64,000 nt of DNA, taken from a phage. Both the position numbers and the translations under genes were made by a program. The notes beneath the pieces are model-generated. The model saw only the letters and a program-made list of their open reading frames with translations. It was not told where the DNA came from and ran no database searches. This document shows, piece by piece, positions 4,824 to 56,895 of this stretch (its first letter is position 1; the number at the start of each line of letters is the position of its first letter). The stretch lies in the sequence record PX393109.1, one strand, 5' to 3'.

Positions 4824-5086
4824 TGGTTAAGCTTCTCGAAGTCACTAAATTCAATACGGTGGTGGTTATGTCGGTAAACCTGAAATGCGCCATTGTATAT
4901 TACCCTAACCAGGATCAGTACGAAGTGGTTAAGGAGCCCATGAAGGAAGCTCGTGTGGTTATGTCGACCGAATCTGGTCGCTTCGCCAGGGAAATGGCTA
5001 AGGAGTTGGACTCCTTCTTTAATGGAACTCTGGATGAGTTCTTTGAGCTGTCTGGTTGGTACGCTCTTCCAGAACCGCTCCTTTGA
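4823..5086 (+). CDS. hypothetical protein (87 aa)
   Basis: ORF with ATGG overlap to upstream stop; class A motif overlaps its 3' end. Confidence 0.45.
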   Translation: MVKLLEVTKFNTVVVMSVNLKCAIVYYPNQDQYEVVKEPMKEARVVMSTESGRFAREMAKELDSFFNGTLDEFFELSGWYALPEPLL

Positions 5087-5110
5087 GCCCTCCAAAGGCT
5101 GTTAAACTGT
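5075..5110 (+). promoter_or_regulatory. class A conserved promoter-like motif (CCGCTCTTT-N~9-AAAGGCTGTTAA-RNTGT), copy 1
   Basis: Motif recurs 16 times, always + strand and 25-90 nt upstream of a start codon. Confidence 0.6.
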
Positions 5111-5141
5111 GCGAGCTTATTTAAACCTGACCGGAGAAACT

Positions 5142-7127
5142 ATGTCAGAACATGCTATTGAAATCACAAGATTGCGTTACCCTGATAACGTTCGTCAGAA
5201 CGTGTCGATGTATCTGGGCGACCCGATTAACTACACTCATCCTCTCCAGGAAATAATCAATAACGCGGAGGATGAGCTGCTTAATGGTCATGCCAACCTG
5301 GTGCAGATCATTAACCGTGAATCCTATAAATTGGTTACCGACAACGGTCGCGGCATTCCTATCTACGCTGATCCGGAAGATCCGACTAAGTCAATCCTGT
5401 TCTCTACTGTAACAGATCTTCACGCAGGTTCCAAGCTGGGTGATAACCGCGAAATCACTTCCGGTACTCACGGTGTAGGTAGCTCTGCTGTTAACGCAGT
5501 GTCTGAGCGCTTTATCGTGATTCGCCGTGTTATGCAGGGTGATAAGGCACACATCCCTATGGAGCCTGGTCAGTTCTACGTGCTTGGCTTCCGTCGTGGT
5601 ATCATGCAGATTGATGCCGTAATCAATGATCTGAACGATCTTCACGATGACGGTATTCCGGATGAAGTGCTGGAGACCTTAAAGGCTACTGACTTCTCTA
5701 CAGCAGTCTTCCTGGTTCCTGATGCTACTCTGTACCGCAGCATCTGGTCTGATGTGGACACGGTTCCTCTGAAGATCTCCCTGATTGGTCGAGATGCCAC
5801 TATCACCGTAAATGGTGAAGCTCTGGCTACCTGGGACTTCCGTGCGGATGTTGCCGAAAATGAGAAGCTGTTCCTGGACTCTACTGTTAAGTATGAGTTC
5901 TCGTTCAACGATCGTCTGACATTCTCCGGAGAGCTGGGCTATTCTGATAAGAATATGTCTTACTCCCACGTGGACATGATCAACTTGATCAATAACCCGC
6001 ATGGTGGTCTGCATGAGAAATTGGTCACGAGAGCGCTCGGCGGCATGCTGAATAAAATCAACTCGGCCATCACTGTTGGTGATGCTAAGCTGGGTCTGAT
6101 CGTGTTCACTAACGTCTTCTCCAGCTACCGTACTGCATTCTCCTCCCAGACTAAGGAGAAGCTGACTGGTCTCGGTATGTCCTGGAGCGACTGGGAAATC
6201 TATGCCAAGAATCAGCTGATGCTGGATGATGAGCAGATCAATGATTACGACTATTATGGCGAGTACTTCTTCTATGAGAAAGAATGCCTTAGTCAGCTCA
6301 CATTCTACTTCAGCCTGGTTTATGAGCAGAATAAGCAGTTCTTCGATGCTCTGATTGCCAAGATCCTGGCTTACAAAGCCAGCCTGAATAAACTCTCCAA
6401 CATGGACTTCATTAAATCCAAGCTGGTGATGGGTGACGATCATCGTAAGGCCGCTATGGACGGAGACATGGCGAAGATCTACGAATCTCCGTCTGACCGC
6501 TGGGATCTTCGTGAACTGTTCATCACAGAGGGTCCGTCTGCTTCGGGTAACATCATCAAACTGCGTAACGAGTATCAGTCGGTGCTTCCGCTCCGTGGTA
6601 AGATGCGTAACTCGGCTTCCATGGATATTATGGAGTTCGTGAATAACCCAGAACTGCTGGCGATCATTAACACTATCGGCTGCGGCATGGGTTCTATGTT
6701 CGACCTGGATAAAGCACGCTACGGTAAGGTCATCATTATGACTGACCTGGATGTGGATGGTCAGCACATCAGTAATCTCATCAGTTCAATCTTCCTCATC
6801 CATGCTCCTGAGCTGGTTAAGGATGGTCGTCTGTATAAACTCGAAGCTCCGTTCTATGTGGTCAAGAACGGTAAGAAGACCGAGTTCTACTACGCCGATG
6901 AGAAGGATAAGATCGACTTCGATAAGTCCTATGTCGAACGTCGTAAGGGTCTCGGTTCCTACACAGAGGAAGAGACTGAGCAGTTCATCGTGAATGCGAA
7001 GACTCGCCGTCTTATCCAGGTCACCTACGATGATAACGAAGAGCATCTCGATGCCGCTCGTAAATTGTTGTACTCATCTCGTGCTCGTCGCCAACTGTTA
7101 GAAGACTACGGTCTGTTTAAGGAGTAA
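5142..7127 (+). CDS. type II DNA topoisomerase large subunit (GyrB-like ATPase + Toprim; T4 gp39-like)
   Basis: GHKL ATPase boxes (NNAEDE, DNGRGIP, GTHGVGSS) and Toprim LRGK...YGKVIIMTDLDVDGQHI. Start moved to ATG 5142 (track start 5109 is GTG). Confidence 0.8.
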   Translation: MSEHAIEITRLRYPDNVRQNVSMYLGDPINYTHPLQEIINNAEDELLNGHANLVQIINRESYKLVTDNGRGIPIYADPEDPTKSILFSTVTDLHAGSKLGDNREITSGTHGVGSSAVNAVSERFIVIRRVMQGDKAHIPMEPGQFYVLGFRRGIMQIDAVINDLNDLHDDGIPDEVLETLKATDFSTAVFLVPDATLYRSIWSDVDTVPLKISLIGRDATITVNGEALATWDFRADVAENEKLFLDSTVKYEFSFNDRLTFSGELGYSDKNMSYSHVDMINLINNPHGGLHEKLVTRALGGMLNKINSAITVGDAKLGLIVFTNVFSSYRTAFSSQTKEKLTGLGMSWSDWEIYAKNQLMLDDEQINDYDYYGEYFFYEKECLSQLTFYFSLVYEQNKQFFDALIAKILAYKASLNKLSNMDFIKSKLVMGDDHRKAAMDGDMAKIYESPSDRWDLRELFITEGPSASGNIIKLRNEYQSVLPLRGKMRNSASMDIMEFVNNPELLAIINTIGCGMGSMFDLDKARYGKVIIMTDLDVDGQHISNLISSIFLIHAPELVKDGRLYKLEAPFYVVKNGKKTEFYYADEKDKIDFDKSYVERRKGLGSYTEEETEQFIVNAKTRRLIQVTYDDNEEHLDAARKLLYSSRARRQLLEDYGLFKE

Positions 7128-7129
7128 TT

Positions 7130-8377
7130 ATGGAACAGGTAAAGATTTCTGAATTCATCACCAAGAACTACACTGACTACAGTGTGTACTGTGCTCTTCA
7201 TCGTGTAGTTCCTGGTATCGATGGCCTGATTCCTGCTCAGCGTCGTATCTACATGGCGCTGAATAGCATTGCTCGCGGGAAGCTGGTTGGGACTCTGAGT
7301 GCTATCTCCGAGACTCAGTCGCTCCACCCATTCGGCGACCAGTCTATCGATGGAACTATCTCTCGTCTGGCTCGTATCGGAGCTATTGATGGTCAGGGTT
7401 CCTTCGGTGTGAAACTGTTGGAAGAAGTACCTGGTGCGGCTCCTCGTTACACGAAGGTTGGCCTGAACGAAGATCGTGCAGAGTACTACTTCGGCTTAGC
7501 GGACTATGTTCCGCAGGTGGAAGGTGAAGAGAAGATGGAATATGCGTACCTTCCGGTGCCGATTCCGTATGCTCTGATGTACGGTACCTTCTCATGGGCT
7601 ACGGGGATTCAGTCTCGTATTCCAGCGTTCACCTATGAGTCACTGCTGGATGCTTATGAGCATGATGACTACAATCTGCTTAAGGCTCAGTACGGTTACG
7701 ATATCGTGCCTGCTAAGTCTGACCTTAAGCAGCTGTGGGAAACTGGTGTAGGTCGCCTCGGTCTTAGCCTTAAGGTGACTCGTGTCAATACCGATACCAT
7801 CGACATCATCGGGTCTGGTGAGGTGATTACTCCTCGCATCGGCTTCCTGAATAAGTGGCTGTCCGAAGGTAAGATCCTGGTCAAGAACATGTCCAAGGAT
7901 AAGATCTATATCCGAGTAATGAAGGCTCCACGTATCAGAACCATCGATATGGACGAGGTTCACGAAGCATGCATGAATATTGCTTACATGAACCGCTCGC
8001 ATCGTATCCAGGTAGCTTATAATGGCCAATTGGTGACGATGGGTATTCGCGACTGGATTGCAGTCACGATGGCTCTCTACAATCAGGCATTCTCCGTCCA
8101 TAAGACTGAGTCGCTTAAGAAGATTGACCGAGACATCGAGATTTACCAGATTCTTCCTAAAGTGGGCGAGCTGGTTATGCAGGATAAGTCTGATGCTCAG
8201 ATCATCAAAGCTCTCGGTATTACCCAGGAAGTGTTGAATTCCTGCCTTAGCCGTAGCATTAGCATGTTGCGTAAGAAAGATCACGACGACCGCATTGCTA
8301 ATCTGCAAGAGCGTCGTGCTAAGGTAGAGAATCAGACTTCTGATGAGATGATTCAGAAGATGATCGGTAAACTGTAA
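7130..8377 (+). CDS. type II DNA topoisomerase DNA-cleavage subunit (GyrA N-terminal-like; T4 gp52-like)
   Basis: IPAQRRIYMAL and active-site-Tyr region AAPRYTKV resemble GyrA/ParC breakage-reunion domain. Confidence 0.75.
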   Translation: MEQVKISEFITKNYTDYSVYCALHRVVPGIDGLIPAQRRIYMALNSIARGKLVGTLSAISETQSLHPFGDQSIDGTISRLARIGAIDGQGSFGVKLLEEVPGAAPRYTKVGLNEDRAEYYFGLADYVPQVEGEEKMEYAYLPVPIPYALMYGTFSWATGIQSRIPAFTYESLLDAYEHDDYNLLKAQYGYDIVPAKSDLKQLWETGVGRLGLSLKVTRVNTDTIDIIGSGEVITPRIGFLNKWLSEGKILVKNMSKDKIYIRVMKAPRIRTIDMDEVHEACMNIAYMNRSHRIQVAYNGQLVTMGIRDWIAVTMALYNQAFSVHKTESLKKIDRDIEIYQILPKVGELVMQDKSDAQIIKALGITQEVLNSCLSRSISMLRKKDHDDRIANLQERRAKVENQTSDEMIQKMIGKL

Positions 8378-8382
8378 CTAAC

Positions 8383-8410: not shown

Positions 8411-8424
8411 GGATATGTACAATA

Positions 8425-8460
8425 CCGCTTCTTTTACGGCTCCAAAGGCTGTTAAGGTGT
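8425..8460 (+). promoter_or_regulatory. class A conserved promoter-like motif, copy 2
   Basis: CCGCTTCTTTTACGGCTCCAAAGGCTGTTAAGGTGT upstream of 8482. Confidence 0.6.
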
Positions 8461-8481
8461 CGAAACTAATGAGGACAGAAC

Positions 8482-9265: not shown

Positions 9266-9301
9266 TCGCTCTTTTTAGGGTTCGAAAGGCTGTTAGGTTG
9301 T
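9266..9301 (+). promoter_or_regulatory. class A conserved promoter-like motif, copy 3 (GTTAGG variant)
   Basis: TCGCTCTTTTTAGGGTTCGAAAGGCTGTTAGGTTGT upstream of 9324. Confidence 0.55.
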
Positions 9302-9323
9302 ACAAGTTAACTGAGGAATTAAA

Positions 9324-10235: not shown

Positions 10236-11618
10236 ATGTCAGATTCAAAGGTAGTTACCTGGGGGACGGTGCTAGTAACGGTGGGTATCATACTCGCCAT
10301 TATGTTAGCTCCCACCCAGTTTGGTGCTGTAATGGACTGGAGTAAGTCTGTATTCATATCTCAGTATGGATTCATATTTACCTGGTCTTCGCTGATCTTC
10401 CTAGCGTTCCTGGCATTCTTTGTATTCAGCAAGCATGGTAACATTAAGCTGGGTAAAGGTGCTCCGAAATATAATCGCTTTACCTATTACTCCATGATGT
10501 TTAGTACCGGTATGGGTGTATCCATGATTTATTATGGTGTACTCGAACCTATGTACCATCAGCAGGAGGGTATGTCCGAACGTCAGAATATGGTAACTAC
10601 CTTCTTTGACTGGGGACTTAACGCATGGGCAGTTTATGCAGTCGTAGGGGTGGCATTCGGGTACTTACTGCATGTACGTGGTGAAGACCGTCCGCTTAAT
10701 CAGTTATTCAAGTCCCGAGCTCTGAATAACCTTAATACGATAAGCTTACTCTTCTCTACCATCATAGGCTTAACCCTGTCGTTCGTCTACGCAGTAGGCC
10801 CGATCAGTTCCGGATTTAAAGAGTTCCTGGGAGTGGATGTTGGTCCTTACACCATTATCGCGCTCCTGACTCTGGGTACTGTACTTAGTGCCGTAACTGG
10901 TGTCGATCGTGGGGTTAAGTGGTTATCCAGATATAATGTAATCGTAGCTCTATCTATTATGGCATTCGTTGCTGTAAGTGGTACATTCTTCGAATACCTC
11001 TGGAAGACCATCACCTATTCTGGTAGCTATCTGCTCCAGATTATTCCTATGTCAGTAAACATCGGCAGTACTGCTGAAGAGAAGCAATGGCTGGCTAGCT
11101 GGCCTTATGCTTACTATGCAGCCTGGGTAGGTTGGGCATTATTCGTCGGAGCGTTTGTGGCACGTATCTCTTACGGCCGTACTATTCGCGAACTGATCCT
11201 CGGATGTGTACTGTTCCCTACCATCATCAGTAACGTCTGGTTTACCGTATTCGGTGTAGCTGGTCTACAACATGGTGCTCAGGATATCTTCCAGCTTCTG
11301 GCTAATTTCCCAGGCGGATGGATATTCTCGGTAATTACCCTCGTGTCTGTGATCCTGTTCTTTATTACAGGTCATGACTCAGCAGGTATTACGGTAGAGT
11401 CCATGACCGCTCCTAGAACTCGTGTATTCTGGATTGTAAGCATGGGTGTAGTTGCTGCTGCACTTAACTGGGCAGGTGGCGACGTAGTAACTGTAACGAA
11501 GACTCTGGTAGCTGTATCGGCTGTTCCGGTACTGATTGGGGTATTGTGTATTCTATTCGGGTTCCTCAAGATCTTTGTACCTAAAGTATTCTTGGCTAAG
11601 GAAACTCCGCCTGTTTGA
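10236..11618 (+). CDS. BCCT-family transporter (betaine/carnitine/choline transporter-like)
   Basis: Multi-TM protein with Trp-rich BCCT signature region AWVGWALFVGAFVARISYGRTIRELILG, as I recall it from BetT/CaiT/OpuD. Confidence 0.7.
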   Translation: MSDSKVVTWGTVLVTVGIILAIMLAPTQFGAVMDWSKSVFISQYGFIFTWSSLIFLAFLAFFVFSKHGNIKLGKGAPKYNRFTYYSMMFSTGMGVSMIYYGVLEPMYHQQEGMSERQNMVTTFFDWGLNAWAVYAVVGVAFGYLLHVRGEDRPLNQLFKSRALNNLNTISLLFSTIIGLTLSFVYAVGPISSGFKEFLGVDVGPYTIIALLTLGTVLSAVTGVDRGVKWLSRYNVIVALSIMAFVAVSGTFFEYLWKTITYSGSYLLQIIPMSVNIGSTAEEKQWLASWPYAYYAAWVGWALFVGAFVARISYGRTIRELILGCVLFPTIISNVWFTVFGVAGLQHGAQDIFQLLANFPGGWIFSVITLVSVILFFITGHDSAGITVESMTAPRTRVFWIVSMGVVAAALNWAGGDVVTVTKTLVAVSAVPVLIGVLCILFGFLKIFVPKVFLAKETPPV

Positions 11619-11642
11619 TGACCTAAAAGGCTGTTAAGGTGT
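11607..11642 (+). promoter_or_regulatory. class A conserved promoter-like motif, copy 4
   Basis: CCGCCTGTTTGATGACCTAAAAGGCTGTTAAGGTGT overlapping 3' end of transporter gene. Confidence 0.55.
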
Positions 11643-12322: not shown

Positions 12323-13357
12323 ATGACCACCAAAGTAGCTTTTATCATCCCAACCTATCATCGTCTGAAGTCGGTACTCCGTCAGATTCAGTCGTTCAAA
12401 GATGCTAAAAAGACTGACGACTCTATTGAGTATCGCTTCTTCTACTTTATTCAGGATGCCTCCGAAGAAGATAAGGCAATTCTGGAAGAGCAGTTTGGTG
12501 GGGATGAGCAATTTAATTTCTGTCATAGCCCTAAGTACGAAAATCCGGTAATCGGAGAAATCCGTGCCCATGCTCTGGATAAAGCATGGATTGTAATGGA
12601 GAAGCAGGACTGGTGCCCAGACATCTGCTACTTCGTGGATGATGATGTCTGGTTCGCCGACGATATCTTCCATCTGGATCGGTCCATTATCGACTTCGAG
12701 GGATCTGAGTTTGAGATGGCGTTCGTCCGTAGCTTCAAGAACCGTAACTACAAGATTGTTGAACTCTGCGATCGTCAGTCCCATAATAACACTGCTCCGG
12801 CTACTGACCTGGGTATTATGGTCAAGACTAGCGAGAAGATGTTCTGGCTGTTCGATAAGACCTTCCAGCAACTCACTGTAGGTGAGGATTGCTACCTGTT
12901 GTTTAAAGGTATGGCGATGGGATGGAAAGTGGGCCAGGTAACCGGTACTGGTAGCTCGTTCTACTGGGATGAGAACTGGTTAATGGACACCTCTTCTAAT
13001 GGCGGTGGTATTCACGAAGTCACCGTAGCTAAGCTAGGCTACTCTCCGAAAGATATGGTAACTCGTAATGAGCTGCTTAGCCGTCCAGATAAGTCCTACG
13101 TACAGTGGCATTGTGCAGATATGTTCCACTATGACTCTGCAGATAGCTCGTTCCGTCGTATTCGTCCCAACATCCAGGAATACTTGAAAGAGTATTGTAC
13201 GGCTACCGAAGATGCAATTATCCGAGCTCCTGGTGCTGGGGTAATGAAGTTCGATGGAACTAACCGTACGGTATTCGGATTAAACAAAGACTATTCCTAC
13301 TTAACTGATCTCAATGATAAGTGGCTGAGTTGGGCATCAGCTAATTCGCTTCTTTGA
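12323..13357 (+). CDS. GT-A fold glycosyltransferase (family 2-like)
   Basis: N-terminal AFIIPTYHR and DXD-type YFVDDD motifs. Confidence 0.5.
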   Translation: MTTKVAFIIPTYHRLKSVLRQIQSFKDAKKTDDSIEYRFFYFIQDASEEDKAILEEQFGGDEQFNFCHSPKYENPVIGEIRAHALDKAWIVMEKQDWCPDICYFVDDDVWFADDIFHLDRSIIDFEGSEFEMAFVRSFKNRNYKIVELCDRQSHNNTAPATDLGIMVKTSEKMFWLFDKTFQQLTVGEDCYLLFKGMAMGWKVGQVTGTGSSFYWDENWLMDTSSNGGGIHEVTVAKLGYSPKDMVTRNELLSRPDKSYVQWHCADMFHYDSADSSFRRIRPNIQEYLKEYCTATEDAIIRAPGAGVMKFDGTNRTVFGLNKDYSYLTDLNDKWLSWASANSLL

Positions 13358-13382
13358 TGAGCTAAAAGGCTGTTACATTGTG
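13346..13382 (+). promoter_or_regulatory. class A conserved promoter-like motif, copy 5 (core embedded in hairpin GGCTGT..ACAGCC)
   Basis: TCGCTTCTTTGATGAGCTAAAAGGCTGTTACATTGTG. Confidence 0.55.
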
Positions 13383-15481: not shown

Positions 15482-15517
15482 CCGCTCTTTTAGGGTCTTG
15501 AAAGGCTGTTAAAATGT
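15482..15517 (+). promoter_or_regulatory. class A conserved promoter-like motif, copy 6
   Basis: CCGCTCTTTTAGGGTCTTGAAAGGCTGTTAAAATGT. Confidence 0.6.
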
Positions 15518-17337: not shown

Positions 17338-17373
17338 CCGCTCTTTTTAGGGCTCGAAAGGCTGTTAAGGTGT
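17338..17373 (+). promoter_or_regulatory. class A conserved promoter-like motif, copy 7
   Basis: CCGCTCTTTTTAGGGCTCGAAAGGCTGTTAAGGTGT. Confidence 0.6.
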
Positions 17374-20921: not shown

Positions 20922-20957
20922 CCGCCTTTTTAGCGGCCTAAAAGGCTGTTAAATTGG
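20922..20957 (+). promoter_or_regulatory. class A conserved promoter-like motif, copy 8
   Basis: CCGCCTTTTTAGCGGCCTAAAAGGCTGTTAAATTGG. Confidence 0.6.
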
Positions 20958-24522: not shown

Positions 24523-24558
24523 CCGCTCTTTTGATGACTCGAAAGGCTGTTAAAGTGT
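24523..24558 (+). promoter_or_regulatory. class A conserved promoter-like motif, copy 9
   Basis: CCGCTCTTTTGATGACTCGAAAGGCTGTTAAAGTGT; followed by 5' UTR hairpin GATGGTG..CACCATC. Confidence 0.6.
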
Positions 24559-25358: not shown

Positions 25359-25394
25359 TCATCATCCTTTTATGTCGACATATTGGAGAAAATA

Positions 25395-26846
25395 ATGACT
25401 AAGGCCCAAAATTTACTCACTCTGTTGATGAGTGAACAAATAGTGGACGAGGATCTAGCCTCGGTAGAGCGTTTCATCGACCAGCGTATGATTGATCACG
25501 CTGTCGCTGACATCGAGAAGAATGGTAAGAGCAGTCAATGGTATACTATGTTCCGCAAGATGCAGAATACCAGTGATGCTAACCTGCGTGACTACTATTC
25601 TTATCTTATGATGATGCCCCAGCAGATGGCTAAGAATTTGCTACGAGAGTTCGTACAGAAAGAAGTTCGTTCTGGTACGTTCTCTGCTGATGCATTCTTT
25701 GCGGAAGATGGCGAAGGTGGCTCTACCCAGCTGAACATGATGGATGCTTATGAGACTCCGGATGGTTCTGCTATGGGTATGTTCACAGAGTTGGCTGCCA
25801 GCAACAGAAATAATAACCCTGAAGAGATCACTACGATAAACGATTTTTTAGATAAGTTTATCAACCATCCTAAACTATCTTCCAGCTCTAAGCTAGTGGT
25901 AATTGCCCGATTGATTACTGGTGATGCGGCAGGTCGTGGTAGCATGACGAGTGGTGCTGGTCTGCAGCTCAACGAGTTTGTGGACGATCTACCGAAGGAG
26001 TATGATCAGGTCATGGCTCAGATCAAGCGTCTTATCGATGCTGGATTCACTATGGACCAGATTAACTCCACCATGATCTTACGTGGTGCAGAACGTACCG
26101 ACGATCAGGGTAATAAGAAGTCCGTAGCGCAGCTGGTGACTAACCATAAGATCAACCAGACTGGCGATAACGTAACTCAGGTAATTAAGGATCTGACTGG
26201 CCAGGATGTGAAGGTTACTCCTGACGGTCGCTGGGATCTGAAACCTGTTTACCGCTGGTTGATGGGACGATCTGTCAACGAAGATCTGTCTAAGGGAGAA
26301 GTCCCTGATATGATCAAAGACGATGGTGGTCGCTGGTACATTAAGTACAAGGACATGGTTTGGAACCCGACTAAGAACGAGTTCATGAATCTGTCCGAAG
26401 CATCCGACGATGATCTGTCCGCATGCTACACTACCGATATGGCTACTGCTAACTCCTGGAAGCTATCTGCTGCTGAGAGTACGGCTATGCCTGAGGGAGT
26501 AGACGAAGCGGCTCCGTCGGAAGTGCTCCGTCGCGTTAACAAGGTTATCGAAGTACTGATGGGCGGTAAAGGTTCTGTACGTACCTCCGACCTTATCAGC
26601 ACTCTGGTCATCTTCGTAGCGCTGGCTAAGCAGGTTAAGTCACCAGTCATTAAGACCTGGCCATCCCAGGATATTAAAACTGTGGCTCGTAAATACCTGA
26701 AGGATGCTAAGTCTGGTAGTCCTAAGGCTAAGCGCGGAGTACTAGCCATGATTATGTCTGTAATCATGAAGCTTAATCCTCGTCTGCAGCAATCCTGGCG
26801 TAAACAGTCCCAACGTATTACCCAGGCAATCAGCAAAGCTCGCTGA
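25395..26846 (+). CDS. hypothetical protein (483 aa)
   Basis: Long ORF with RBS GGAGAAAATA-ATG; no domain recognised. Confidence 0.5.
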   Translation: MTKAQNLLTLLMSEQIVDEDLASVERFIDQRMIDHAVADIEKNGKSSQWYTMFRKMQNTSDANLRDYYSYLMMMPQQMAKNLLREFVQKEVRSGTFSADAFFAEDGEGGSTQLNMMDAYETPDGSAMGMFTELAASNRNNNPEEITTINDFLDKFINHPKLSSSSKLVVIARLITGDAAGRGSMTSGAGLQLNEFVDDLPKEYDQVMAQIKRLIDAGFTMDQINSTMILRGAERTDDQGNKKSVAQLVTNHKINQTGDNVTQVIKDLTGQDVKVTPDGRWDLKPVYRWLMGRSVNEDLSKGEVPDMIKDDGGRWYIKYKDMVWNPTKNEFMNLSEASDDDLSACYTTDMATANSWKLSAAESTAMPEGVDEAAPSEVLRRVNKVIEVLMGGKGSVRTSDLISTLVIFVALAKQVKSPVIKTWPSQDIKTVARKYLKDAKSGSPKAKRGVLAMIMSVIMKLNPRLQQSWRKQSQRITQAISKAR

Positions 26847-26875: not shown

Positions 26876-26975
26876 AAAAATATTTTTCACTATTGAATGT
26901 TTTTGAAAAATAAAACGAACTTTGAACCTCCTCAAAGCCCGTTCTCTTGGGTGGGGCGGGTTGGCCGCTTCACGG
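26869..26975 (+). promoter_or_regulatory. class B conserved intergenic element, copy 2
   Basis: TTTTTCAAAAATA...GAAAAATAAAACGA...AAAGCCCGTTCTCTTGGGTGGGGCGGG followed by TATAAT 12 nt before the RBS. Confidence 0.55.
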
Positions 26976-28501: not shown

Positions 28502-30016
28502 ATGATCGTATCAAAGTCCTTGAATGAATTACACCGTCTTATTGATATGAAAGAAGCAACCTACACCACTCCGGTGCGTTTTTACTTCTCTGATGGTCCT
28601 AAAGAAACTACTATCGGTCGACTGTTTATTTGGGAAATCAGCGGCTATCTTCCAGAGAAAGAAATAGATAAGAAGGAATCTGCGAAGATCGTCTCTTACA
28701 TCAATAATAACTATACTCCGGAAGTGGCTGGTCGCCGACTGCATAAGTTGCAGCAGTTCGGATTTCATAAGGCTACTCAGTCTGGTCTGAGTTTATGTTA
28801 CGACGACACTAAGTTTGACTTCGGTATAGACTTTCCAGCCATGACTCAGGAACTCGGTAAGATGGGGTACGAGGATCGTCTGGCTGCTGCGGATAAAGTC
28901 ATCAACGAATGTACCGATCGCTGGTTTAAGGAAGTAGACCGTCATAATCCGCTGTATGCGATGGGTGTATCTGGTGCTCGTGTATCTCCTCCCCAGGTTC
29001 GTTCGATGGTGGTGGCTAAAGGCCTTCTGGTGGGCATGACTGGCAAGATCATGCCGATGCCGATCATGGAGAACTTAAGCTCTGGATTATCTCCCATCAA
29101 CTACTTCAATACCTGCGGACCTGCTCGTAAGGGTCTGGCTGGTAACTTCTTCCTGGTACCTGCGACTGGTTGGTTTGCTCGCCAGCTGGTTAACTGTTCC
29201 AGAGAGTTGTCTATTGTAGAAGAAGACTGCGGAACTAAGGAAGTAATCACCTTACCTAAGAAATCAGCACTGTATCGATTCACTAGCGACCGAATAATGG
29301 TTACTAAAGAGAATGTGGATCAGCTGGCGGATGAAGAAGGTAATGTGAAAGTCCTTAGCCCTATCACCTGTGAATCAACTAAGGGTGGGGTATGTCAGCA
29401 TTGCTGTGGTATGGATCCCGCTAAGCCTGCTAACTTCTTCCCTATTAACTTCGGTATTGGAACGGCGTCGGCGCAACATATCTCCGAACCATCTACTCAG
29501 GCTGGTCTCCGTGGTAAGCATACATCTGGTTCGACTACGCTTAAGGAATTCGGTACTTCGGTAAGTAACTCCTTAGCCGATATCCTGAAGACGGTAGGTG
29601 GCCGAGGAACTGCGGTGGCTCAGGTATCTGAGTCTAAGTATAAGTGCATCACGGATCTTGCCCACGAAACTGGATCAGCAATTAAAGGTGCAGAGTTAGC
29701 TGCGATTCAGCTTAAGCACATCTTCGACGACATCGGTATCGGTATCGCATCGATTCACCATGAGATCATTGCTCGCGGTTGTACTGATCTGGTTAAGATG
29801 AATAATGGACGAATCGGTGTTCGCAGCATGGGAGATAAGGGTGAGGTACTGGCGATTAAAGCCGATGCCATCCCTACGAAGCATCCCAGCTGGTTGAAGT
29901 CTATTGGCCATGGTAACGTTAAACGTAGACTTACTGATGCAGTGCTTAATGGTGATGTTAGCTTCGGAACCCGTTCCGAGATGATCATTGCTGGGTTAAA
30001 TCTGAATAACAAATAA
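28502..30016 (+). CDS. RNA polymerase beta-prime-like subunit, C-terminal half (bridge helix/trigger loop region)
   Basis: NTCGPARKGLAGNFFLVPATGWFARQLV resembles beta-prime region F (STHGARKGLADTALKTA..GYLTRRLV); ASAQHISEPSTQAGLRGKH resembles trigger-loop AAQSIGEPGTQLTMRTFH. Confidence 0.75.
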   Translation: MIVSKSLNELHRLIDMKEATYTTPVRFYFSDGPKETTIGRLFIWEISGYLPEKEIDKKESAKIVSYINNNYTPEVAGRRLHKLQQFGFHKATQSGLSLCYDDTKFDFGIDFPAMTQELGKMGYEDRLAAADKVINECTDRWFKEVDRHNPLYAMGVSGARVSPPQVRSMVVAKGLLVGMTGKIMPMPIMENLSSGLSPINYFNTCGPARKGLAGNFFLVPATGWFARQLVNCSRELSIVEEDCGTKEVITLPKKSALYRFTSDRIMVTKENVDQLADEEGNVKVLSPITCESTKGGVCQHCCGMDPAKPANFFPINFGIGTASAQHISEPSTQAGLRGKHTSGSTTLKEFGTSVSNSLADILKTVGGRGTAVAQVSESKYKCITDLAHETGSAIKGAELAAIQLKHIFDDIGIGIASIHHEIIARGCTDLVKMNNGRIGVRSMGDKGEVLAIKADAIPTKHPSWLKSIGHGNVKRRLTDAVLNGDVSFGTRSEMIIAGLNLNNK

Positions 30017-30024: not shown

Positions 30025-30717
30025 ATGGATGTGGGCAAGATCTATAATCCCCTGCTGATCCATACAGTAGGGGACAGTATATGCTACGAGGGACGTAAGT
30101 TCATAGGTACAGATGCCCTACAACCAGTCTGGTATAATGGGATAGAGTCGCATATAGACGACATAGACGACTTTTGGACTACCGATTGGTATCCTATCAG
30201 AAACTTCACTATCGCAGGAAGTAAGGCGGTACTCCGGAGAAATCTGGCATGTGAAGGGTTCGGTGGTATGCAACTGTACTATCTGTTGGCTACTCACAAA
30301 ACCTATATTAATGAAAAATATCGACATAATCTTATTGACGATATTAGTAATCGGCGGTATTACGGAATGGGCAATGGTATTCTACGGATTGTGGAAGAAC
30401 TATTGAAGTCGTTCCCTACTATCATAACAGATGATCGTTTCATAATTAAGGAACTAGGGGATATGGTGGTCCCTATAGAAGACGTGATTACTTGCGGACG
30501 TAGAGATCGTAAGCTGTACTCTAAGGAAACCGTAAGAGACTACATCAATAAGCAGCGCATCCAGGATCTGTCTTCCCAAGGTCGGGTAATGACTCTGCTA
30601 TTGTCTAATGTGGAATTATCCAGCGCAATTATCTATGAGACTCAGGATAAGCGTAACTGTGCATGTACGATGATTAACTATCGTCGCTCTCGCAAGATGC
30701 CTCCTAACCAAAAATAA
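30025..30717 (+). CDS. hypothetical protein (230 aa), AT-rich with atypical codon usage, inserted between RNAP subunit genes
   Basis: ORF with GGGAG RBS; rich in ATA/AGA/AAA codons relative to flanking genes. Confidence 0.45.
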   Translation: MDVGKIYNPLLIHTVGDSICYEGRKFIGTDALQPVWYNGIESHIDDIDDFWTTDWYPIRNFTIAGSKAVLRRNLACEGFGGMQLYYLLATHKTYINEKYRHNLIDDISNRRYYGMGNGILRIVEELLKSFPTIITDDRFIIKELGDMVVPIEDVITCGRRDRKLYSKETVRDYINKQRIQDLSSQGRVMTLLLSNVELSSAIIYETQDKRNCACTMINYRRSRKMPPNQK

Positions 30718-30720
30718 TTG

Positions 30721-30798
30721 AAATTTATTTTTCAAATAACCGATTTTTGGGAACTCATAAAGCCCGTTCTTTTGGGTGGGGCGCGGTCGCGCTTCACT
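30721..30798 (+). promoter_or_regulatory. class B conserved intergenic element, copy 4
   Basis: AAATTTATTTTTCAAATAACCGATTTTT...AAAGCCCGTTCTTTTGGGTGGGGCGCGGTCGCGC. Confidence 0.55.
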
Positions 30799-30824
30799 GG
30801 ATAATCTAATTTGGAGCTAATACT

Positions 30825-31595: not shown

Positions 31596-33164
31596 ATGAA
31601 ATTAAAGTTATCTATTGCAACTGATGATGTAATCCGTGCCGAGTCCAGTGGTGAAGTAACCAGTATGGGCATGTATAACCTTAAGTTCCATGATCCTAAG
31701 CCATTCACTGGTGGGTTATTCTGCCAGCGTATCTTCGGACCTCTGGTAACTGGTAAGTGTGAGTGTGGTAACCAGCTGGTTATGGGAGCGCCTCCGTGTA
31801 ATGTGTGCGGTATGGTAGCTATGCATCGTGAATCTCGTCGCCGCCGTATGGGTCACATCGAGACGATCGTTCCTTATGTGAATCCATTAGCTATCAAACG
31901 TATGGCTGCGCTATTCGGATTCCCAGAGCGAGAATTCGGTCAGTTCCTTATCGGTAAATATCGCTTCGTAGTTCAGGAAGCTGGTCTGGCAGCTAAGATG
32001 GTTGGTGATGATCGGGAGCGGGTTCGTGAGGCTAATGCTGCTCTTCCGGAATATGAAGATCGTGAGAAGTATGCGATGTTCTACTCTAACACTATCCCAG
32101 TTCAGGATAGCACGAAGCGCCTCGCAGTGGTAATGATTAAGATCCGCCGTATGTCAGAGCACGAGTCATCAGAGTTAGGTCTTCTGAGTCTTATCCAGGC
32201 ATTGGTAGCTAATCATGCTGATATGAAAGCCTATATCGAAGAGTGCGAAGATCCTACAGTAATCAATAGTGGTTATACAGAGTTCAGCGACTTCTATAAC
32301 ACTACGGTGCTGGTGAATCCTCCTAGCTATCGTGATGTTGGCATCAGCAATGGGGTAATGTCGTATCATCCGACTAACTTACTCTACCTGCGAATCCTGC
32401 GCCATGCTATCCGTATCAGAAGTATTCGCGATACTGCCGAGGCCAGCGAAGCGTTGTTATCTCTGATTCCTCGTGAATCTATTGTAATGCAGAAGATGGT
32501 TAACGGACTAATCCTGGAGGGCACTAAGGACTATCGAGGTAACTTAATTAAGCCGATGATCAATAATCTTAAAGGTAAGGGTGGTCGAATCCGTGGTAAC
32601 CTGTTAGGTAAGCGCGTTGATTACTCCGGTCGTTCTGTAGTTACTTCGGCTCCGCATCTTCCGCTGGATACTCTTGGTGTACCGTTCAAGATGATGTACG
32701 AATTACTTCAGCCAGACATCCTGGGTGAGCTGGAGAACTTATATGGTGGCCCGACTAACGAAGGGTACAACATGTACGACATCAGCAATAAAGTCCAGCG
32801 TATGTACAAGAATAAGTCCCGAGTAGCTCTGGAAGTATGCTGGAGACTGTGTGAGAATGCCACGGTGTTCATGAACCGTGCACCATCCCTACACCGTTAC
32901 TCAGTATGGGGATTTAAGGTCAGACCTCACATGGGTAAGGAGATTCAGGTTCCTCCGATGGCTATGGGTGGTCAGAACATGGACGTGGATGGTGATACCG
33001 CAGCAATTCACCGTGTACTGACTGATCGTGCTTGCTGGGAAGTACGTAGCCTGATGATGGTTAACCAGAACATCAACAGCTCTATTGACTTCGATAGTCC
33101 GGTCGTGAAGCCGTCCCACGAAATGGTGGTAGGTCTGTTCCAGGCAACTACGGTGGATATGTAA
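31596..33164 (+). CDS. RNA polymerase beta-prime-like subunit, N-terminal half (zinc ribbon to catalytic loop)
   Basis: GGLFCQRIFGP...CECG...CNVCG...RRRRMGHIE resembles the beta-prime N-terminal zinc-binding region; NMDVDGDTAAIH matches catalytic NADFDGDQMAVH near C-terminus. Confidence 0.75.
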   Translation: MKLKLSIATDDVIRAESSGEVTSMGMYNLKFHDPKPFTGGLFCQRIFGPLVTGKCECGNQLVMGAPPCNVCGMVAMHRESRRRRMGHIETIVPYVNPLAIKRMAALFGFPEREFGQFLIGKYRFVVQEAGLAAKMVGDDRERVREANAALPEYEDREKYAMFYSNTIPVQDSTKRLAVVMIKIRRMSEHESSELGLLSLIQALVANHADMKAYIEECEDPTVINSGYTEFSDFYNTTVLVNPPSYRDVGISNGVMSYHPTNLLYLRILRHAIRIRSIRDTAEASEALLSLIPRESIVMQKMVNGLILEGTKDYRGNLIKPMINNLKGKGGRIRGNLLGKRVDYSGRSVVTSAPHLPLDTLGVPFKMMYELLQPDILGELENLYGGPTNEGYNMYDISNKVQRMYKNKSRVALEVCWRLCENATVFMNRAPSLHRYSVWGFKVRPHMGKEIQVPPMAMGGQNMDVDGDTAAIHRVLTDRACWEVRSLMMVNQNINSSIDFDSPVVKPSHEMVVGLFQATTVDM

Positions 33165-34480: not shown

Positions 34481-34817
34481 GAAGACTACTGGTAACAAAA
34501 TTAACCTGGACATGTTTCATCTGATGTATGCTAAGCAACTGGGTATGGAACCTGCTGCTTACGCTGCTAAGGTTAATTCAGACCAGGAGTTCCGTCACCA
34601 GGTAGAGACTGCGTTCTCTGGGTATGCAGTAGCTGTAAATGCTCTTCGCCTCCAGATCATCGGTGGCTCTAAGCTGTCTATTGAAGAGATAGCTCCTGGT
34701 GTGGCTAAGATCCGTCTGGGAGTGGGTGAGTGGGAGTTAGACAATACTCCTAAGAATACAGAAGTAGCTCTGGATGATTTCCTGATCTCCAGTAACTTTC
34801 TGACTGCCGCCGTTTAA
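34473..34817 (+). CDS. hypothetical protein (114 aa)
   Basis: Overlapping start (ATGACTAA); ORF to 34817. Confidence 0.45.
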   Translation: MTKKTTGNKINLDMFHLMYAKQLGMEPAAYAAKVNSDQEFRHQVETAFSGYAVAVNALRLQIIGGSKLSIEEIAPGVAKIRLGVGEWELDNTPKNTEVALDDFLISSNFLTAAV

Positions 34818-34842
34818 TACGGTCCAAAGGCTGTTAACTTGG
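34808..34842 (+). promoter_or_regulatory. class A conserved promoter-like motif, copy 10 (core forms 5' arm of terminator hairpin)
   Basis: CCGCCGTTTAATACGGTCCAAAGGCTGTTAACTTG. Confidence 0.55.
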
Positions 34843-35198: not shown

Positions 35199-35529
35199 TA
35201 AGCATAAATGGGATTGGCCTAGTTATGAGCTCATCCAGACCTTATCGCAGGGATGGGGTCCGGAGTTAGGCCTATATACCTGTAATGTAGATAATCTCTA
35301 CAATAGCCATGGGACCTATCTTTACGAGATAACTCTGAAGAAGTTCATTCGTCCCAGAGTGATTACAGTTACCGAGCTTAAGCATGTGCGAGATCTTGCC
35401 GCTATGAGAGAAGTCTTTATGGAGCAAGGATGGCAGGTGCTTAAGGTAGTGGAAGATAATGGGGAGTCTGTAATCTTCGTTATCATGGATATGGACTGTA
35501 TTGATACCATCGTTCGACACGAAAAATAA
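35179..35529 (+). CDS. hypothetical protein (116 aa)
   Basis: Overlapping start; ORF to 35529. Confidence 0.4.
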   Translation: MILYHRSKHKWDWPSYELIQTLSQGWGPELGLYTCNVDNLYNSHGTYLYEITLKKFIRPRVITVTELKHVRDLAAMREVFMEQGWQVLKVVEDNGESVIFVIMDMDCIDTIVRHEK

Positions 35530-35530
35530 A

Positions 35531-35610
35531 ACGTTTTATTTTTCAAATAAACGATTTTTGAACCGTCCTAAAGCCCGTTCTTGTGGGCGGGGGCGTCAAG
35601 GCGCTTCCCG
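35531..35610 (+). promoter_or_regulatory. class B conserved intergenic element, copy 5
   Basis: TTTTATTTTTCAAATAAACGATTTTT...AAAGCCCGTTCTTGTGGGCGGGGGCG. Confidence 0.55.
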
Positions 35611-35642
35611 GTTCATCAAATCGTCTAATTTGGGATAAAACT

Positions 35643-51668: not shown

Positions 51669-51704
51669 CCGCTCTTTTGTACGGTCAAAAGGCTGTTAAA
51701 CTGT
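51669..51704 (+). promoter_or_regulatory. class A conserved promoter-like motif, copy 13
   Basis: CCGCTCTTTTGTACGGTCAAAAGGCTGTTAAACTGT; followed by 5' UTR hairpin ATAGAGCA..TGCTCTAT. Confidence 0.6.
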
Positions 51705-53065: not shown

Positions 53066-53101
53066 CCGCTCTTTTTAGGTGCTGAAAGGCTGTTAAGGTG
53101 T
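53066..53101 (+). promoter_or_regulatory. class A conserved promoter-like motif, copy 14
   Basis: CCGCTCTTTTTAGGTGCTGAAAGGCTGTTAAGGTGT. Confidence 0.6.
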
Positions 53102-54486: not shown

Positions 54487-55142
54487 TGCGGATCTGGACC
54501 GACAAGAACTCTATTCTGGAGTTTATCGGAGAGTACCGATTCCTATCTAACTTTTATCCTGTTCCTATTGAGGATAAGAATCCTTACGGGAACGAGACTC
54601 TTCCCTCCCTTACTTACCCTAGTGTGGAGCATGCCTATCAAGCATCTAAGTCTCCATCACTAGCCCATCGTCTTATCATAGCTAGACTTCATACTCCTGG
54701 TGAGGCCAAGAGATATGGACGTAAGCTGCCCATTACTGAATCGTGGAAGGAACAGAGAGTAGATGTGATGGAACACCTACTCCGGATTAAATTCGCGAAA
54801 GGTGGGGAGCTAGCTCAAAAATTGACCGATACTTGGCCTAAGGAGCTGGTCGAAGGAAATACCCACGGAGATTCCTTCTGGGGTATGACTCGTGAGGAGT
54901 ACAAGTCCGTCCTCACTGGTATTAATATGCTCGGACGATTACTGATGAAACTTCGGGAGGAGTTAGTTATGGAACAAATGACCAAGGAGACAGGATCGTT
55001 TGCGGAGTGGCATAAACTGCTGCACCAATACGCTCAGTCTCGTGGCGGTAGCGCTGCTGATGCGGAAGCCTGGCGGGATGATTACGATGAAGGTAAGACC
55101 CCTAAGCAGGCCTACGACGATGAGTGGGGCGAAGAAGACTAA
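54483..55142 (+). CDS. NADAR/YbiA-family protein (DUF1768; N-glycosidase / ADP-ribose-processing fold)
   Basis: FLSNFYPVPI...YPSVEHAYQASKS...GEAKRYGRKLP..SWKEQRVDVMEHLLRIKF...HGDSFWG colinear with E. coli YbiA as I recall it. Confidence 0.7.
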   Translation: MMRIWTDKNSILEFIGEYRFLSNFYPVPIEDKNPYGNETLPSLTYPSVEHAYQASKSPSLAHRLIIARLHTPGEAKRYGRKLPITESWKEQRVDVMEHLLRIKFAKGGELAQKLTDTWPKELVEGNTHGDSFWGMTREEYKSVLTGINMLGRLLMKLREELVMEQMTKETGSFAEWHKLLHQYAQSRGGSAADAEAWRDDYDEGKTPKQAYDDEWGEED

Positions 55143-55784: not shown

Positions 55785-55820
55785 CCGCCGTTTCTTACCC
55801 TCGAAAGGCTGTTAAATTGT
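55785..55820 (+). promoter_or_regulatory. class A conserved promoter-like motif, copy 15
   Basis: CCGCCGTTTCTTACCCTCGAAAGGCTGTTAAATTGT. Confidence 0.6.
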
Positions 55821-55846
55821 TGCACCTCAACTGATAAGGATAACCG

Positions 55847-56560
55847 ATGTCTACTAAGATGATGCCACACCATCTGGCTCCGAATAAACTGTTTAACCGA
55901 TTCCTGTCATATCACGACTCCTACCACTGCGCAATTGACATCGAGACCGAGTATCTCGATTTTAAAGAGCCTGGGGTAGTTCTATCTGTAGGTATGGTGA
56001 CGGTTGGTCCTGATCACTACTCCCACGTCTACTTCACTATTGATCGAGAAGAGTCGCTGGCTCTGGGTATGAAGTCTGACCCTAACGTAGTTGAATGGCT
56101 CAACACTCTCCCGAAACCCGTCCGTGATGCTGCATATGCTAATCCAGTATCTGTTGACGAAGCTCTGGATATCATCGAAGAGTACGTAGCTAAGGTACTA
56201 CAGGATCCTGGTTGCCAGATGTTGAACTTCATCGGTAACGCACCAGAGTTCGACCAGGGATTCCTGGATTGGTACTTTAAGGCTAAAGGACGTAAGACCC
56301 CGTTCCTACACTGGATGAATCGAGATTACCGCACTCTGGCTAGTCTGCAGCTGATCTCATTCGATGATCGTCGCATGATTAAAGAAGAACTGAGTAGCCA
56401 GCACGAGTCTATGTCTGATCACCATGCATTGTTCGATGCGATGCTGGAAGCTAAGACTTGGGTTCGCACCATCAATCGTGTAAAAGAGTTACAGGATCTG
56501 GAGCACGAGGTGAATACCATGATTGCTATGCAGGGTAACTCTGTGGAAGATGGAGAGTAA
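55847..56560 (+). CDS. DEDDh 3'-5' exonuclease (DnaQ/RNase T-like)
   Basis: Exo I CAIDIETEY, and C-terminal H...D motif HHALFDAMLEA. Confidence 0.65.
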   Translation: MSTKMMPHHLAPNKLFNRFLSYHDSYHCAIDIETEYLDFKEPGVVLSVGMVTVGPDHYSHVYFTIDREESLALGMKSDPNVVEWLNTLPKPVRDAAYANPVSVDEALDIIEEYVAKVLQDPGCQMLNFIGNAPEFDQGFLDWYFKAKGRKTPFLHWMNRDYRTLASLQLISFDDRRMIKEELSSQHESMSDHHALFDAMLEAKTWVRTINRVKELQDLEHEVNTMIAMQGNSVEDGE

Positions 56561-56873
56561 GCTTTGTCGGGTGGTTAATATACGTACCAATCCTAACTAC
56601 GATTTATATGTTGGGAGAGGTACTATATTCGGGAATAAGTGGAGCCATAAAGATTTACCTAACGCTATTAACGTAGGTTCCCGAACATTAGCCATCGCGA
56701 AATACAGACTATGGTTCCACCAGCAAGTAAAAGATGGCCACATAAGCATCTCCTACTTACGGACTCTTAAGGGTAAGACTTTAGGGTGCTCCTGCTTACC
56801 GTTACCATGTCATGCTCAAGTTATAGCTGACTTCGTTAATTCATTACCTGACGAAGATTCCGCTCTTTCGTAG
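56550..56873 (+). CDS. hypothetical protein (107 aa), Cys-rich C-terminal region
   Basis: ATG overlapping upstream gene; LGCSCLPLPCHA motif; family not assignable with confidence. Confidence 0.4.
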   Translation: MESKLCRVVNIRTNPNYDLYVGRGTIFGNKWSHKDLPNAINVGSRTLAIAKYRLWFHQQVKDGHISISYLRTLKGKTLGCSCLPLPCHAQVIADFVNSLPDEDSALS

Positions 56874-56895
56874 CCTCCAAAGGCTGTTAAACTGT
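56860..56895 (+). promoter_or_regulatory. class A conserved promoter-like motif, copy 16
   Basis: CCGCTCTTTCGTAGCCTCCAAAGGCTGTTAAACTGT overlapping stop of upstream gene. Confidence 0.6.

Follow-up and report, generated by a model that had tools for sequence, protein, structure and literature searches.

The middle promoters of phage T4 are bipartite, combining a sigma70-like -10 element (TAnnnT, often with TGn) with a phage box that replaces the -35 element, and are scattered over the early and middle region of the genome of T4, a large virulent phage whose DNA is modified. T7-type promoters are single blocks of 23 base pairs (bp) that occur in many near-identical, co-oriented copies within very short intergenic spaces, often beside hairpins and with a purine-rich stretch following. 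The jumbo phages phiKZ and AR9 encode multisubunit RNA polymerase (RNAP) homologs, including a split beta-prime subunit, and have phage-specific promoters and no recognizable sigma factor; the promoters of these phages are short, AT-rich and close to the start site, as in the AACA-N6-TW element of AR9 that is read on the template strand, rather than bipartite elements of 36 nucleotides (nt). Here we analyze a repeated bipartite 36-nt motif, denoted class A, in a 64,000-nt stretch of phage DNA (sequence record PX393109.1; hereinafter, the window, to which all coordinates refer unless another genome is named). Judging from its sequence, placement and conservation, class A is probably the main DNA-level, lineage-specific promoter of the non-structural ("early/middle") arm of the phage genome that is read by a re-programmed bacterial-type polymerase.

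The layout of class A is closest to that of the T4 middle promoters, and its copy number, near-identity of copies and dense packing are closest to those of the T7-type promoters, but the defining features of each fail. The MotA box of T4, (a/t)(a/t)TGCTTtA, is centered at -30, whereas class A has CCGCTCTTTT at about -40/-31 followed by AAAGGC at -21/-16; positions -35 to -27 are occupied by CTTTT and variable spacer, with no TGCTT. Furthermore, class A is far more conserved than the T4 middle promoters, no MotA or AsiA homolog was found (see below for the scope of the search), and the likeness to a -10 element is lost in distant relatives. Unlike the one-block T7-type promoters, class A consists of two boxes, and the only polymerase-related genes are those for fragments of beta-prime. 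The phiKZ and AR9 phages differ in encoding both beta and beta-prime, often in two sets and in very divergent form, whereas here no beta was found (see below for the searches). We found no description of class A in the searchable literature, and it is apparently an undescribed class of phage-specific promoters: queries with the motif string and with the names of the phages IME392, EP_H11, RP13, Ab1-TPeters and YerA41 gave no match on promoters or transcription of this phage group, and the paper that describes RNA-seq of YerA41 reports no promoters.

The class A motif in the window and in related phages

The first-pass annotation, made from the letters of the window alone, listed sixteen copies of the motif, and all 16 were recovered where it had placed them, in the span from 5075 to 56895. 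The copies align without gaps across 36 nt under the consensus CCGCTCTTTT-N9-AAAGGCTGTTAA-RN-TGT, with a spacer between the two boxes of exactly 9 nt in 16 of 16 cases and an information content of ~48 bits (55 aligned positions). The boxes form an imperfect direct repeat (GCTCTT and GCTGTT, 21 bp apart). The strict pattern CCGCTCTTTT-N5-14-AAAGGCTGTTAA has 6 exact matches compared to 0 in 100 shuffles, and AAAGGCTGTTAA alone, with up to 2 mismatches allowed, has 19 matches compared to 4.8 expected, 16 of which constitute the family. With a weight matrix derived from the 16 copies, the members score 38 to 54 bits and all lie on the + strand, as originally claimed, whereas the rest of the 64-kilobase (kb) window, on both strands, scores below 12 bits; because there are no sites with intermediate scores, the family is sharply bounded and lacks a degenerate fringe. 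An exact-pattern scan of IMG/VR with AAAGGCTGTTAANNTGT yielded 70 contigs with one match each, which look like chance matches, and no multi-copy relative.

The window is ~95% identical to the Escherichia phages EP_H11 (111 kb) and vB_EcoM_IME392 (116 kb; hereinafter, IME392), two poorly annotated myoviruses. Their genomes are partitioned into a ~73-kb arm of replication, nucleotide-metabolism and small unknown genes, which is encoded on the + strand here, and a 38-kb arm of structural and lysis genes on the opposite strand. The genome-wide scan with the weight matrix detected no further sites in the window and 24 copies in the complete EP_H11 genome, all of them located within the non-structural arm and co-oriented with it, and none in the 38-kb structural arm. 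The first of these copies precedes the first gene of the arm by 50 nt, at the divergent junction, so that no upstream transcript can arrive there on that strand. The last + gene of EP_H11 is followed not by a class A motif but by a bidirectional hairpin terminator. The presence of class A at the head of the arm and its absence from the tail indicate a start signal rather than an end signal. Thus, gene co-orientation, proximity to start codons, presence at the arm head and absence from the other arm, which are the general properties of phage-specific promoters, are all found in class A.

Within the arm, the motif is placed just before start codons, as the first-pass annotation had noted. After some start codons were mended by eye from the annotation of EP_H11, the distance from the end of the motif to the next start was found to range from 16 to 74 nt, with a median of ~26 nt, whereas the spacing from the preceding stop codon varies between -14 nt and hundreds of nt. 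The frequent overlap with upstream stop codons that had also been pointed out holds as well: 4 copies overlap the 3' end of the upstream open reading frame (ORF) by 11 to 14 nt, and 7 begin 0 to 8 nt past the stop; the recurring string TAAAACCGCTCTTT occurs 3 times. The genes behind class A copies include those with replication and metabolism functions.

Comparison with EP_H11 and IME392 reveals purifying selection on the motif, with 7 substitutions among 828 motif positions and 100 among 2760 positions in the 60-nt flanks (Fisher p = 6e-6), that is, the boxes evolve ~4 times slower than their surroundings. No conserved RNA fold was detected: RNAalifold gave -0.85 kcal/mol for the alignment of the 16 copies, with 3 invariant pairs and no covariation, and the Rfam scan of the window matched no family; accordingly, interpretations of class A as an RNA element were dropped. 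Combined with the absence of pairing, the fixed 9-bp spacing points to recognition of the motif as double-stranded DNA. The motif also lacks a conserved hairpin of the GC-rich kind that, together with a U run, makes an intrinsic terminator, although separate terminators of this type adjoin some of the copies.

A protein search with the N-terminal beta-prime fragment encoded in the window delineated a phage lineage whose members infect Ralstonia, Acinetobacter, Vibrio and Rhizobium, with ~29-37% identity (35-37% for Acinetobacter phage Ab1-TPeters and Ralstonia phage RP13, and ~30% for Vibrio phage Va2). Two intermediate relatives were identified in public assemblies (loci L085 and L084); their protein identity to this phage, measured on an ORF of 487 amino acids (aa) discussed below, is 79% and 59%, respectively. 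Both contain class A at the same 4 junctions, namely, before the dTMP-kinase-like, YfbR-like and DNA polymerase genes and before the 487-aa ORF. At these junctions, the downstream box remains essentially AAAGGCTGT(T/C)A(A/G), whereas the upstream box degenerates from CCGCyyGTTT to little more than nnnnyCTTTw, with ACAACTGATA and ACAATCTTTT being the forms found in L084. This pattern of a retained downstream box and a decaying upstream one implies that the former is the core of the element and the latter is auxiliary.

In the more distant phages, motifs of similar construction occupy the coding strand of the non-structural arm. The 7-mers that are most enriched in the intergenic DNA of Ab1-TPeters are GCTGTTT, CCTGTTT and CTGTTAA, of the [GC]CTGTT type, and belong to two families, one with the form CCTGTTTCTTAA-N10-AArCCTGTTAAATTGT followed by a G run, and the other a palindrome AACTCnAAATTGAGTT adjoining CAAAAGCTGTTTAAAGTG. 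These motifs precede genes for topoisomerase, ligase, helicase and DNA polymerase; in the window, class A precedes the topoisomerase, ligase and DNA polymerase genes. The motif of RP13 is ACGACkCTAT-N9-mAGACCTTGTAAG, with the same 9-bp spacing as here and with ACGACTCTAT in the upstream box, and that of Va2 is AACCyy-N4-5-AACCTTGCT. Between phages, the two boxes change together: GCTCTT/GCTGTT in this phage, CCTGTT/CCTGTT, 24 bp apart, in Ab1-TPeters, and GACTCT/GACCTT in RP13, which hints at one recognition module that reads both. On the strength of these comparisons, class A is a heritable feature of the lineage that varies with the phage and not with the host, and motifs of the same architecture are present at orthologous junctions wherever the gene order is comparable.

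Orientation, placement, presence at the arm head and absence from the arm end, purifying selection, the lack of RNA structure and the motifs at orthologous junctions all support the promoter interpretation put forward in the first-pass annotation. The gene-end half of the combined gene-end/gene-start signal that it offered as an option is not supported, given that the motif has no terminator features and is missing at the arm end.

Polymerase genes and the possible reader of class A

The window encodes two fragments of the beta-prime subunit (Table 1), with E-values of 1e-51 and 1e-27 and ~31% identity to bacterial RpoC; the best PDB match of the N-terminal fragment is E. coli beta-prime (E = 3e-51), and we consider this fragment a candidate part of the enzyme reading class A. 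The lineage that includes EP_H11 and IME392, Ab1-TPeters, RP13, Va2 and probably the Rhizobium phages RHph encodes a beta-prime whose catalytic aspartates are intact, split in two in all these phages except Va2, where it is single.

In the whole genome of EP_H11, the window, 100 kb of Ab1-TPeters and 50 kb each of RP13 and Va2, the complementary beta subunit was not detected by tblastn with Salmonella RpoB, by phmmer with the beta of YerA41 or with a two-sequence profile. Neither did phmmer --max with Salmonella RpoB identify a beta subunit in EP_H11 and Ab1-TPeters, or a Pfam search among the large ORFs. In those same beta searches, the beta-prime pieces score E = 1e-20 to 1e-53. When all phage records were searched with RpoB using tblastn, no beta was found for this clade among the best 60 of 89 matches or in the organism counts, and beta was present in the sister group consisting of YerA41, Carin-5, Arash and Vibrio D69; the YerA41 operon encompasses, in this order, beta-prime N, beta-prime C and beta. 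A T7-type single-subunit RNAP was not found among the ORFs of at least 450 aa in the window and the late arm of EP_H11, each of which was either assigned otherwise or had no family match.

Hence the suggestion of the first-pass annotation that a phage RNAP homolog could read the motif holds only in part: the phage encodes not a full polymerase but beta-prime alone, in two fragments, and class A cannot be simply assigned to an autonomous phage RNAP. The presence of beta-prime with no detectable beta across the lineage suggests a hybrid polymerase that uses the host beta, and we infer that the enzyme acting on this DNA contains host subunits, at least beta.

Another protein of potential relevance is the 487-aa ORF (Table 1), for which only 4 homologs were found. 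Given its position next to the C-terminal beta-prime fragment, the 487-aa protein might, speculatively, be a specificity factor. Its neighbors of 230 and 251 aa had no sequence match in PDB. The RNAP subunits of YerA41 are reported to be packaged in the virion, and it is possible that, in this phage too, transcription components are injected.

Taken as a promoter, class A would be a double-stranded DNA signal comprising two boxes at the fixed 9-bp spacing, with the downstream box AAAGGCTGTTAA-RN-TGT serving as the essential core and the upstream box, at about the position of a -35 element, as a lineage-variable auxiliary element. We infer an early or middle temporal class and a transcription start a few nt past the TGT, within the purine-rich stretch C(G/A)GAGG found after many copies, which would yield leaders of ~10-70 nt. 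The predicted reader is a bacterial-type multisubunit RNAP re-programmed by the phage, in which host subunits (at least beta) would be joined by the split phage beta-prime and/or a phage specificity factor; such an enzyme would differ both from an autonomous phage polymerase and from the sigma70 holoenzyme of the host in its unmodified form.

A more specific version of this scheme, which we put forward tentatively and consider unlikely as it stands, is a chimeric RNAP in which the phage beta-prime fragments, perhaps along with adjacent small conserved ORFs, replace the host beta-prime on the alpha2-beta-omega assembly, such that the hybrid core, alone or with a partner such as the 487-aa protein, provides specificity for class A and for a second repeated cassette, class B (see below). 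In the chimeric enzyme, one possible route is that the zipper and zinc-finger region of the phage beta-prime would make sequence-specific contacts with the invariant AAAGGC at -21/-16, the section of the spacer for which contacts with the zipper of bacterial beta-prime are known (PMC3173786). Were this the case, promoter choice would depend on the exchange of a catalytic subunit of the core, with neither a sigma factor nor an activator nor an autonomous polymerase setting it, and the chimeric RNAP could be an adaptation to transcribing thymidine-hypermodified DNA.

The hairpins that adjoin several class A copies are better explained as terminators or stabilizers of the upstream transcript that are squeezed against the promoter; in these tight spaces, terminators for the upstream transcripts would overlap the promoter or follow it directly. 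Those at 8383 and 9231 stand before their class A copies. In the copy at 13346, the core AGGCTGTTAC contributes the 5' arm to the perfect hairpin AGGCTGTTAC-ATT-GTGACAGCCT (13365-13390). In the copy at 34807, the core AGGCTGTTAAC is the 5' arm of the perfect inverted repeat AGGCTGTTAAC...GTTAACAGCCT, which is followed by a T run (34826-34867), such that the motif itself builds a terminator. Both inverted repeats place a reversed copy of the core on the opposite strand. In the copy at 17338, the 5' arm of the hairpin takes in the 3' end of the motif. Because in these three copies the 5' arm is inside the presumed promoter, transcripts begun at the motif would miss that arm and escape termination. 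In IME392, the terminator stem at 8383-8404 carries an A-to-G change on its 5' arm and a G-to-C change on its 3' arm, which may be a compensatory pair and would in that case support a functional hairpin.

Several observations weigh against class A being a promoter for a re-programmed polymerase. Domains of the sigma70_r2, sigma70_r4, MotA, AsiA and gp55-like types and of single-subunit polymerases are absent from ~90 ORFs compared with Pfam or PHROGs, the small ORFs having not been scanned exhaustively. The AlphaFold model of the 487-aa protein has a pLDDT (predicted local distance difference test) score of 55, and a Foldseek search of PDB with this model produced nothing below E = 0.28. The copies at 11607 and 24523 have full terminators, each a hairpin with a T run, inside the predicted leaders (11654-11690 and ~24575-24625, respectively), and with this order of promoter, terminator and gene, a bacterial-type polymerase is expected to stop; the promoter model accommodates these two cases, which it does not explain, only if termination is partial or the enzyme is resistant. 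The beta-prime genes are located behind class B rather than class A, which obscures the order of events. Finally, the downstream box reads as an element that the ordinary host enzyme could recognize.

Alternative explanations

This last point is the basis of the alternative under which the unmodified E. coli sigma70 holoenzyme uses class A copies as extended -10 promoters lacking a -35 element, probably early, with the upstream and spacer boxes being sites for phage regulators or tuning promoter strength. The first-pass annotation had denied any likeness to a sigma70 -35/-10 pair. This is correct for the -35 element, whose position holds CTCTTT or CTTTTN with no TTGACA-like hexamer, such that a consensus scan calls no class A copy, but incorrect for the downstream box. 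There, TG-T-TAARNT corresponds to an extended -10 element (TGnTAnnnT, with TG one base upstream of TAnnnT) in one register in 16 of 16 copies in the window, 22 of the 24 in EP_H11, all 4 in L085 and 3 of 4 in L084, and the conservation by position mirrors that of the sigma70 -10 element, being high at the equivalents of -15/-14, -12, -11 and -7 and free at -9/-8. In addition, the lack of a phage beta means that host subunits are needed, and the first genes require some transcription for which canonical sigma70 promoters are not available. Promoters of the canonical -35/-10 type are indeed not enriched in the regions scanned (27 compared to 32 expected, 23 compared to 21, and 3 compared to 7; window 1-20000 and the start of the EP_H11 arm).

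However, the class A hexamers (TAAGGT and TAAACT) match TATAAT at only 3 or 4 of the 6 positions, which, with the -35 element missing, predicts weak activity alone, and ~30 more bits are conserved beyond the positions that sigma70 reads. The expectation that the hexamer persists wherever the element is conserved failed in the distant relatives: the TAnnnT register is found in 6 of 12 copies in each of the two Ab1-TPeters families, in 4 of 11 copies in RP13 and in at most 1 of 10 in Va2, although the primary sigma factors of the respective hosts read the same -10 element. Moreover, the boxes co-vary with the phage rather than the host. The weak hexamers, the absent -35 element, the extra conserved bits and the loss of the register make the unmodified holoenzyme a minority possibility, and a rather improbable one.

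It is very unlikely that class A is an operator only, at which a repressor or activator of the phage, a DNA-modification protein or a nucleoid protein would bind beside promoters that we did not recognize. The boxes are imperfect direct repeats in this phage, Ab1-TPeters and RP13, as expected for a protein that binds twice, and in two copies (13346 and 34807), the core is part of a DNA palindrome. Nevertheless, there is no other candidate promoter between the motif and the gene, with leaders as short as 16 nt, and no enrichment of sigma70-type promoters in the arm regions scanned; promoters, rather than operators alone, are characterized by strict co-orientation with genes and by a fixed proximity to start codons.

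The RNA-level alternative holds that the upstream box is a boxA-like loading site for NusB/NusE, as in the lambda nut sites and rrn boxA, and that class A functions in antitermination or processing by rendering an arriving polymerase resistant to terminators. The lambdoid boxA consensus, common to lambda nutL/nutR and rrn boxA, is CGCTCTT(T)A, and CCGCTCTTT(T)A contains it in ~9 of the 16 copies, with the variants CCGCCGTTT and CCGCTTCTTT breaking boxA; terminator hairpins follow or overlap the copies at 11607, 17338, 24523 and 34807. Unlike the nut and rrn sites, class A shows no boxB-like or other conserved hairpin in the 16-copy alignment and is present in 24 copies per genome as opposed to two in the known nut or put systems, and the first EP_H11 copy is beyond the reach of upstream transcription on the + strand. 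The upstream box is the part least conserved in relatives, as seen in the L084 and RP13 forms given above, even though NusB/NusE recognize boxA in a conserved manner across bacteria, and the invariant part is the downstream box. Overall, antitermination appears highly improbable.

Finally, a sequence-specific pause or termination site that marks the 3' ends of upstream transcripts is barely credible: although class A often abuts or overlaps the upstream stop codon, several copies adjoin hairpins and the core CTGTT is reminiscent of ATCTGTT, the class II termination sequence of T7 (which belongs to an unrelated single-subunit enzyme), the motif stands before the first gene of the arm and not after the last one, where an ordinary bidirectional hairpin terminator ends the arm, its distance is tight to the next start and loose to the previous stop, and separate terminators, where they exist, precede it (8383 and 9231).

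A second cassette, surrounding genes and the biology of the lineage

Counting of k-mers revealed a second repeated cassette of ~130 nt, class B, that occurs 5 times in the window. The cassette combines a TTCAAA...TTTGAA palindrome rich in AT with the core AAAGCCCGTTCTTTTGGGTGG, a GC hairpin and the conserved ribosome-binding region TCTAATTTGGAG; the class B core resembles that of class A (AAAG-sC-yGTT). Jointly, the class A and class B copies are spaced by 0.6 to 6 kb, with class B occupying a 10-kb gap in class A. Class B thus appears to be a second promoter-like class. Class-B-like elements were found also in L084, where they precede both beta-prime operons, in RP13 and in Va2, where one precedes the beta-prime gene. 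All copies of both classes and the transcription-related ORFs are listed in Table 1.

Table 1. Class A and class B copies and transcription-related open reading frames in the window
Feature	Coordinates	Strand	Remarks
Class A copy 1	5075..5110	+	Score 49.4 bits; 30 nt before topoisomerase II/GyrB-like gene (ATG 5141)
Class A copy 2	8425..8460	+	Preceded by terminator hairpin 8383-8404; 21 nt to ATG 8482 (methyltransferase-like)
Class A copy 3	9266..9301	+	TCGC variant; preceded by hairpin 9231-9252; 22 nt to ATG 9324
Class A copy 4	11607..11642	+	Overlaps last 12 nt of ORF 10236-11618; followed by intrinsic terminator 11654-11680; 62 nt to ATG 11705
Class A copy 5	13346..13381	+	Overlaps end of upstream ORF; 23 nt to ATG 13405
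Class A copy 6	15482..15517	+	27 nt to dTMP-kinase-like gene (ATG 15545); orthologous copies in L085 and L084
Class A copy 7	17338..17373	+	Directly after stop of ThyA-like gene; 3' end within terminator hairpin 17367-17394; 47 nt to ATG 17421
Class A copy 8	20922..20957	+	25 nt to family A DNA polymerase gene (ATG 20983); orthologous copies in L085 and L084
Class A copy 9	24523..24558	+	Followed by terminator-like hairpin; 74 nt to ATG 24633; heads operon with 487-aa ORF
Class A copy 10	34807..34842	+	Overlaps end of upstream ORF; core pairs with downstream arm, T run after
Class A copy 11	40564..40599	+	26 nt to DNA ligase gene (ATG 40626)
Class A copy 12	46600..46635	+	16 nt to ATG 46652, shortest leader; Shine-Dalgarno sequence begins 7 nt past motif
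Class A copy 13	51669..51704	+	Followed by stable leader hairpin without T run; 74 nt to ATG 51779
Class A copy 14	53066..53101	+	23 nt to ATG 53125
Class A copy 15	55785..55820	+	26 nt to ATG 55847 (Rv2179c-like exoribonuclease)
Class A copy 16	56860..56895	+	Overlaps end of upstream ORF by 14 nt; 16 nt to ATG 56912
Class B copy 1	4471..4559	+	Repeated cassette
Class B copy 2	26887..26975	+	Heads operon with beta-prime C-terminal fragment
Class B copy 3	30712..30800	+	Heads operon with beta-prime N-terminal fragment
Class B copy 4	35523..35611	+	Repeated cassette
Class B copy 5	39022..39110	+	Repeated cassette
487-aa ORF	25383..26846	+	Predicted mostly helical; conserved beside beta-prime C-terminal fragment across the lineage
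Beta-prime C-terminal fragment	28502..30016	+	RpoC residues ~563-990
Beta-prime N-terminal fragment	31596..33164	+	RpoC residues ~20-514; zinc-binding cysteines kept, catalytic aspartates as NMDVDGD

At the convergent junction of the two arms (~60485-60515 in the window), the bidirectional terminator consists of an A run, GGGACTCAC...GTGAGTCCC and a T run, with neither class A nor class B present there. Inspection by eye of the intergenic regions in the late arm of EP_H11 disclosed some TATAAATA-like strings and no convincing common motif. Four class A copies of EP_H11 (98492, 99097, 99279 and 100981) are clustered within 2.5 kb that are nearly free of annotated ORFs (98.4-101.7 kb of that genome), and an analogous cluster, with motif copies ~700 nt apart and only tiny ORFs, is located at 16.8-19.6 kb in Ab1-TPeters; these clustered copies may drive non-coding or very small early transcripts.

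The window also contains a set of genes for thymidine hypermodification (14484-15455, 16264-17337, 11705-12316, 8482-9222, 13405-14484, 45009-46597 and 58269-58892), which encompasses a 5-hydroxymethyldeoxyuridine DNA kinase domain (PF18723; 14484-15455), a ThyA-like protein, a PIG-L-type deacetylase, a methyltransferase, glycosyltransferases and a dCTP deaminase-like protein. In one paper (PMC12686479), IME392 is grouped with phages that carry hypermodified thymidines. The conserved positions of class A are T-rich and, accordingly, the promoter may be read in modified form. Other genes in the window encode a 2H protein that is either Acb1-like (anti-CBASS, the cyclic oligonucleotide-based antiphage signaling system) or RNA-ligase-like (33956-34480), a NADAR domain (54483-55142), an Rv2179c-like 3'-5' exoribonuclease (55847-56560) and a 921-aa protein in which an SbcD-like metallophosphoesterase N-terminus is joined to SbcC/Rad50 (1667-4432). 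No transfer RNA genes were found in the window.

If class A is a promoter, its 16 to 24 near-identical sites with a defined core provide a handle on an uncharacterized transcription strategy. The lineage, with members infecting Escherichia, Acinetobacter, Ralstonia, Vibrio and Rhizobium, unites thymidine-hypermodified DNA, a lack of canonical host-type promoters, no recognizable sigma factor and only the beta-prime half of the polymerase. The motif improves the annotation of operons in the poorly annotated genomes of this group and, if the specificity factor is found, class A would be a candidate orthogonal promoter for synthetic biology. Above all, it makes testable the central question of who transcribes this DNA and how specificity arises without a phage beta subunit and sigma factor.

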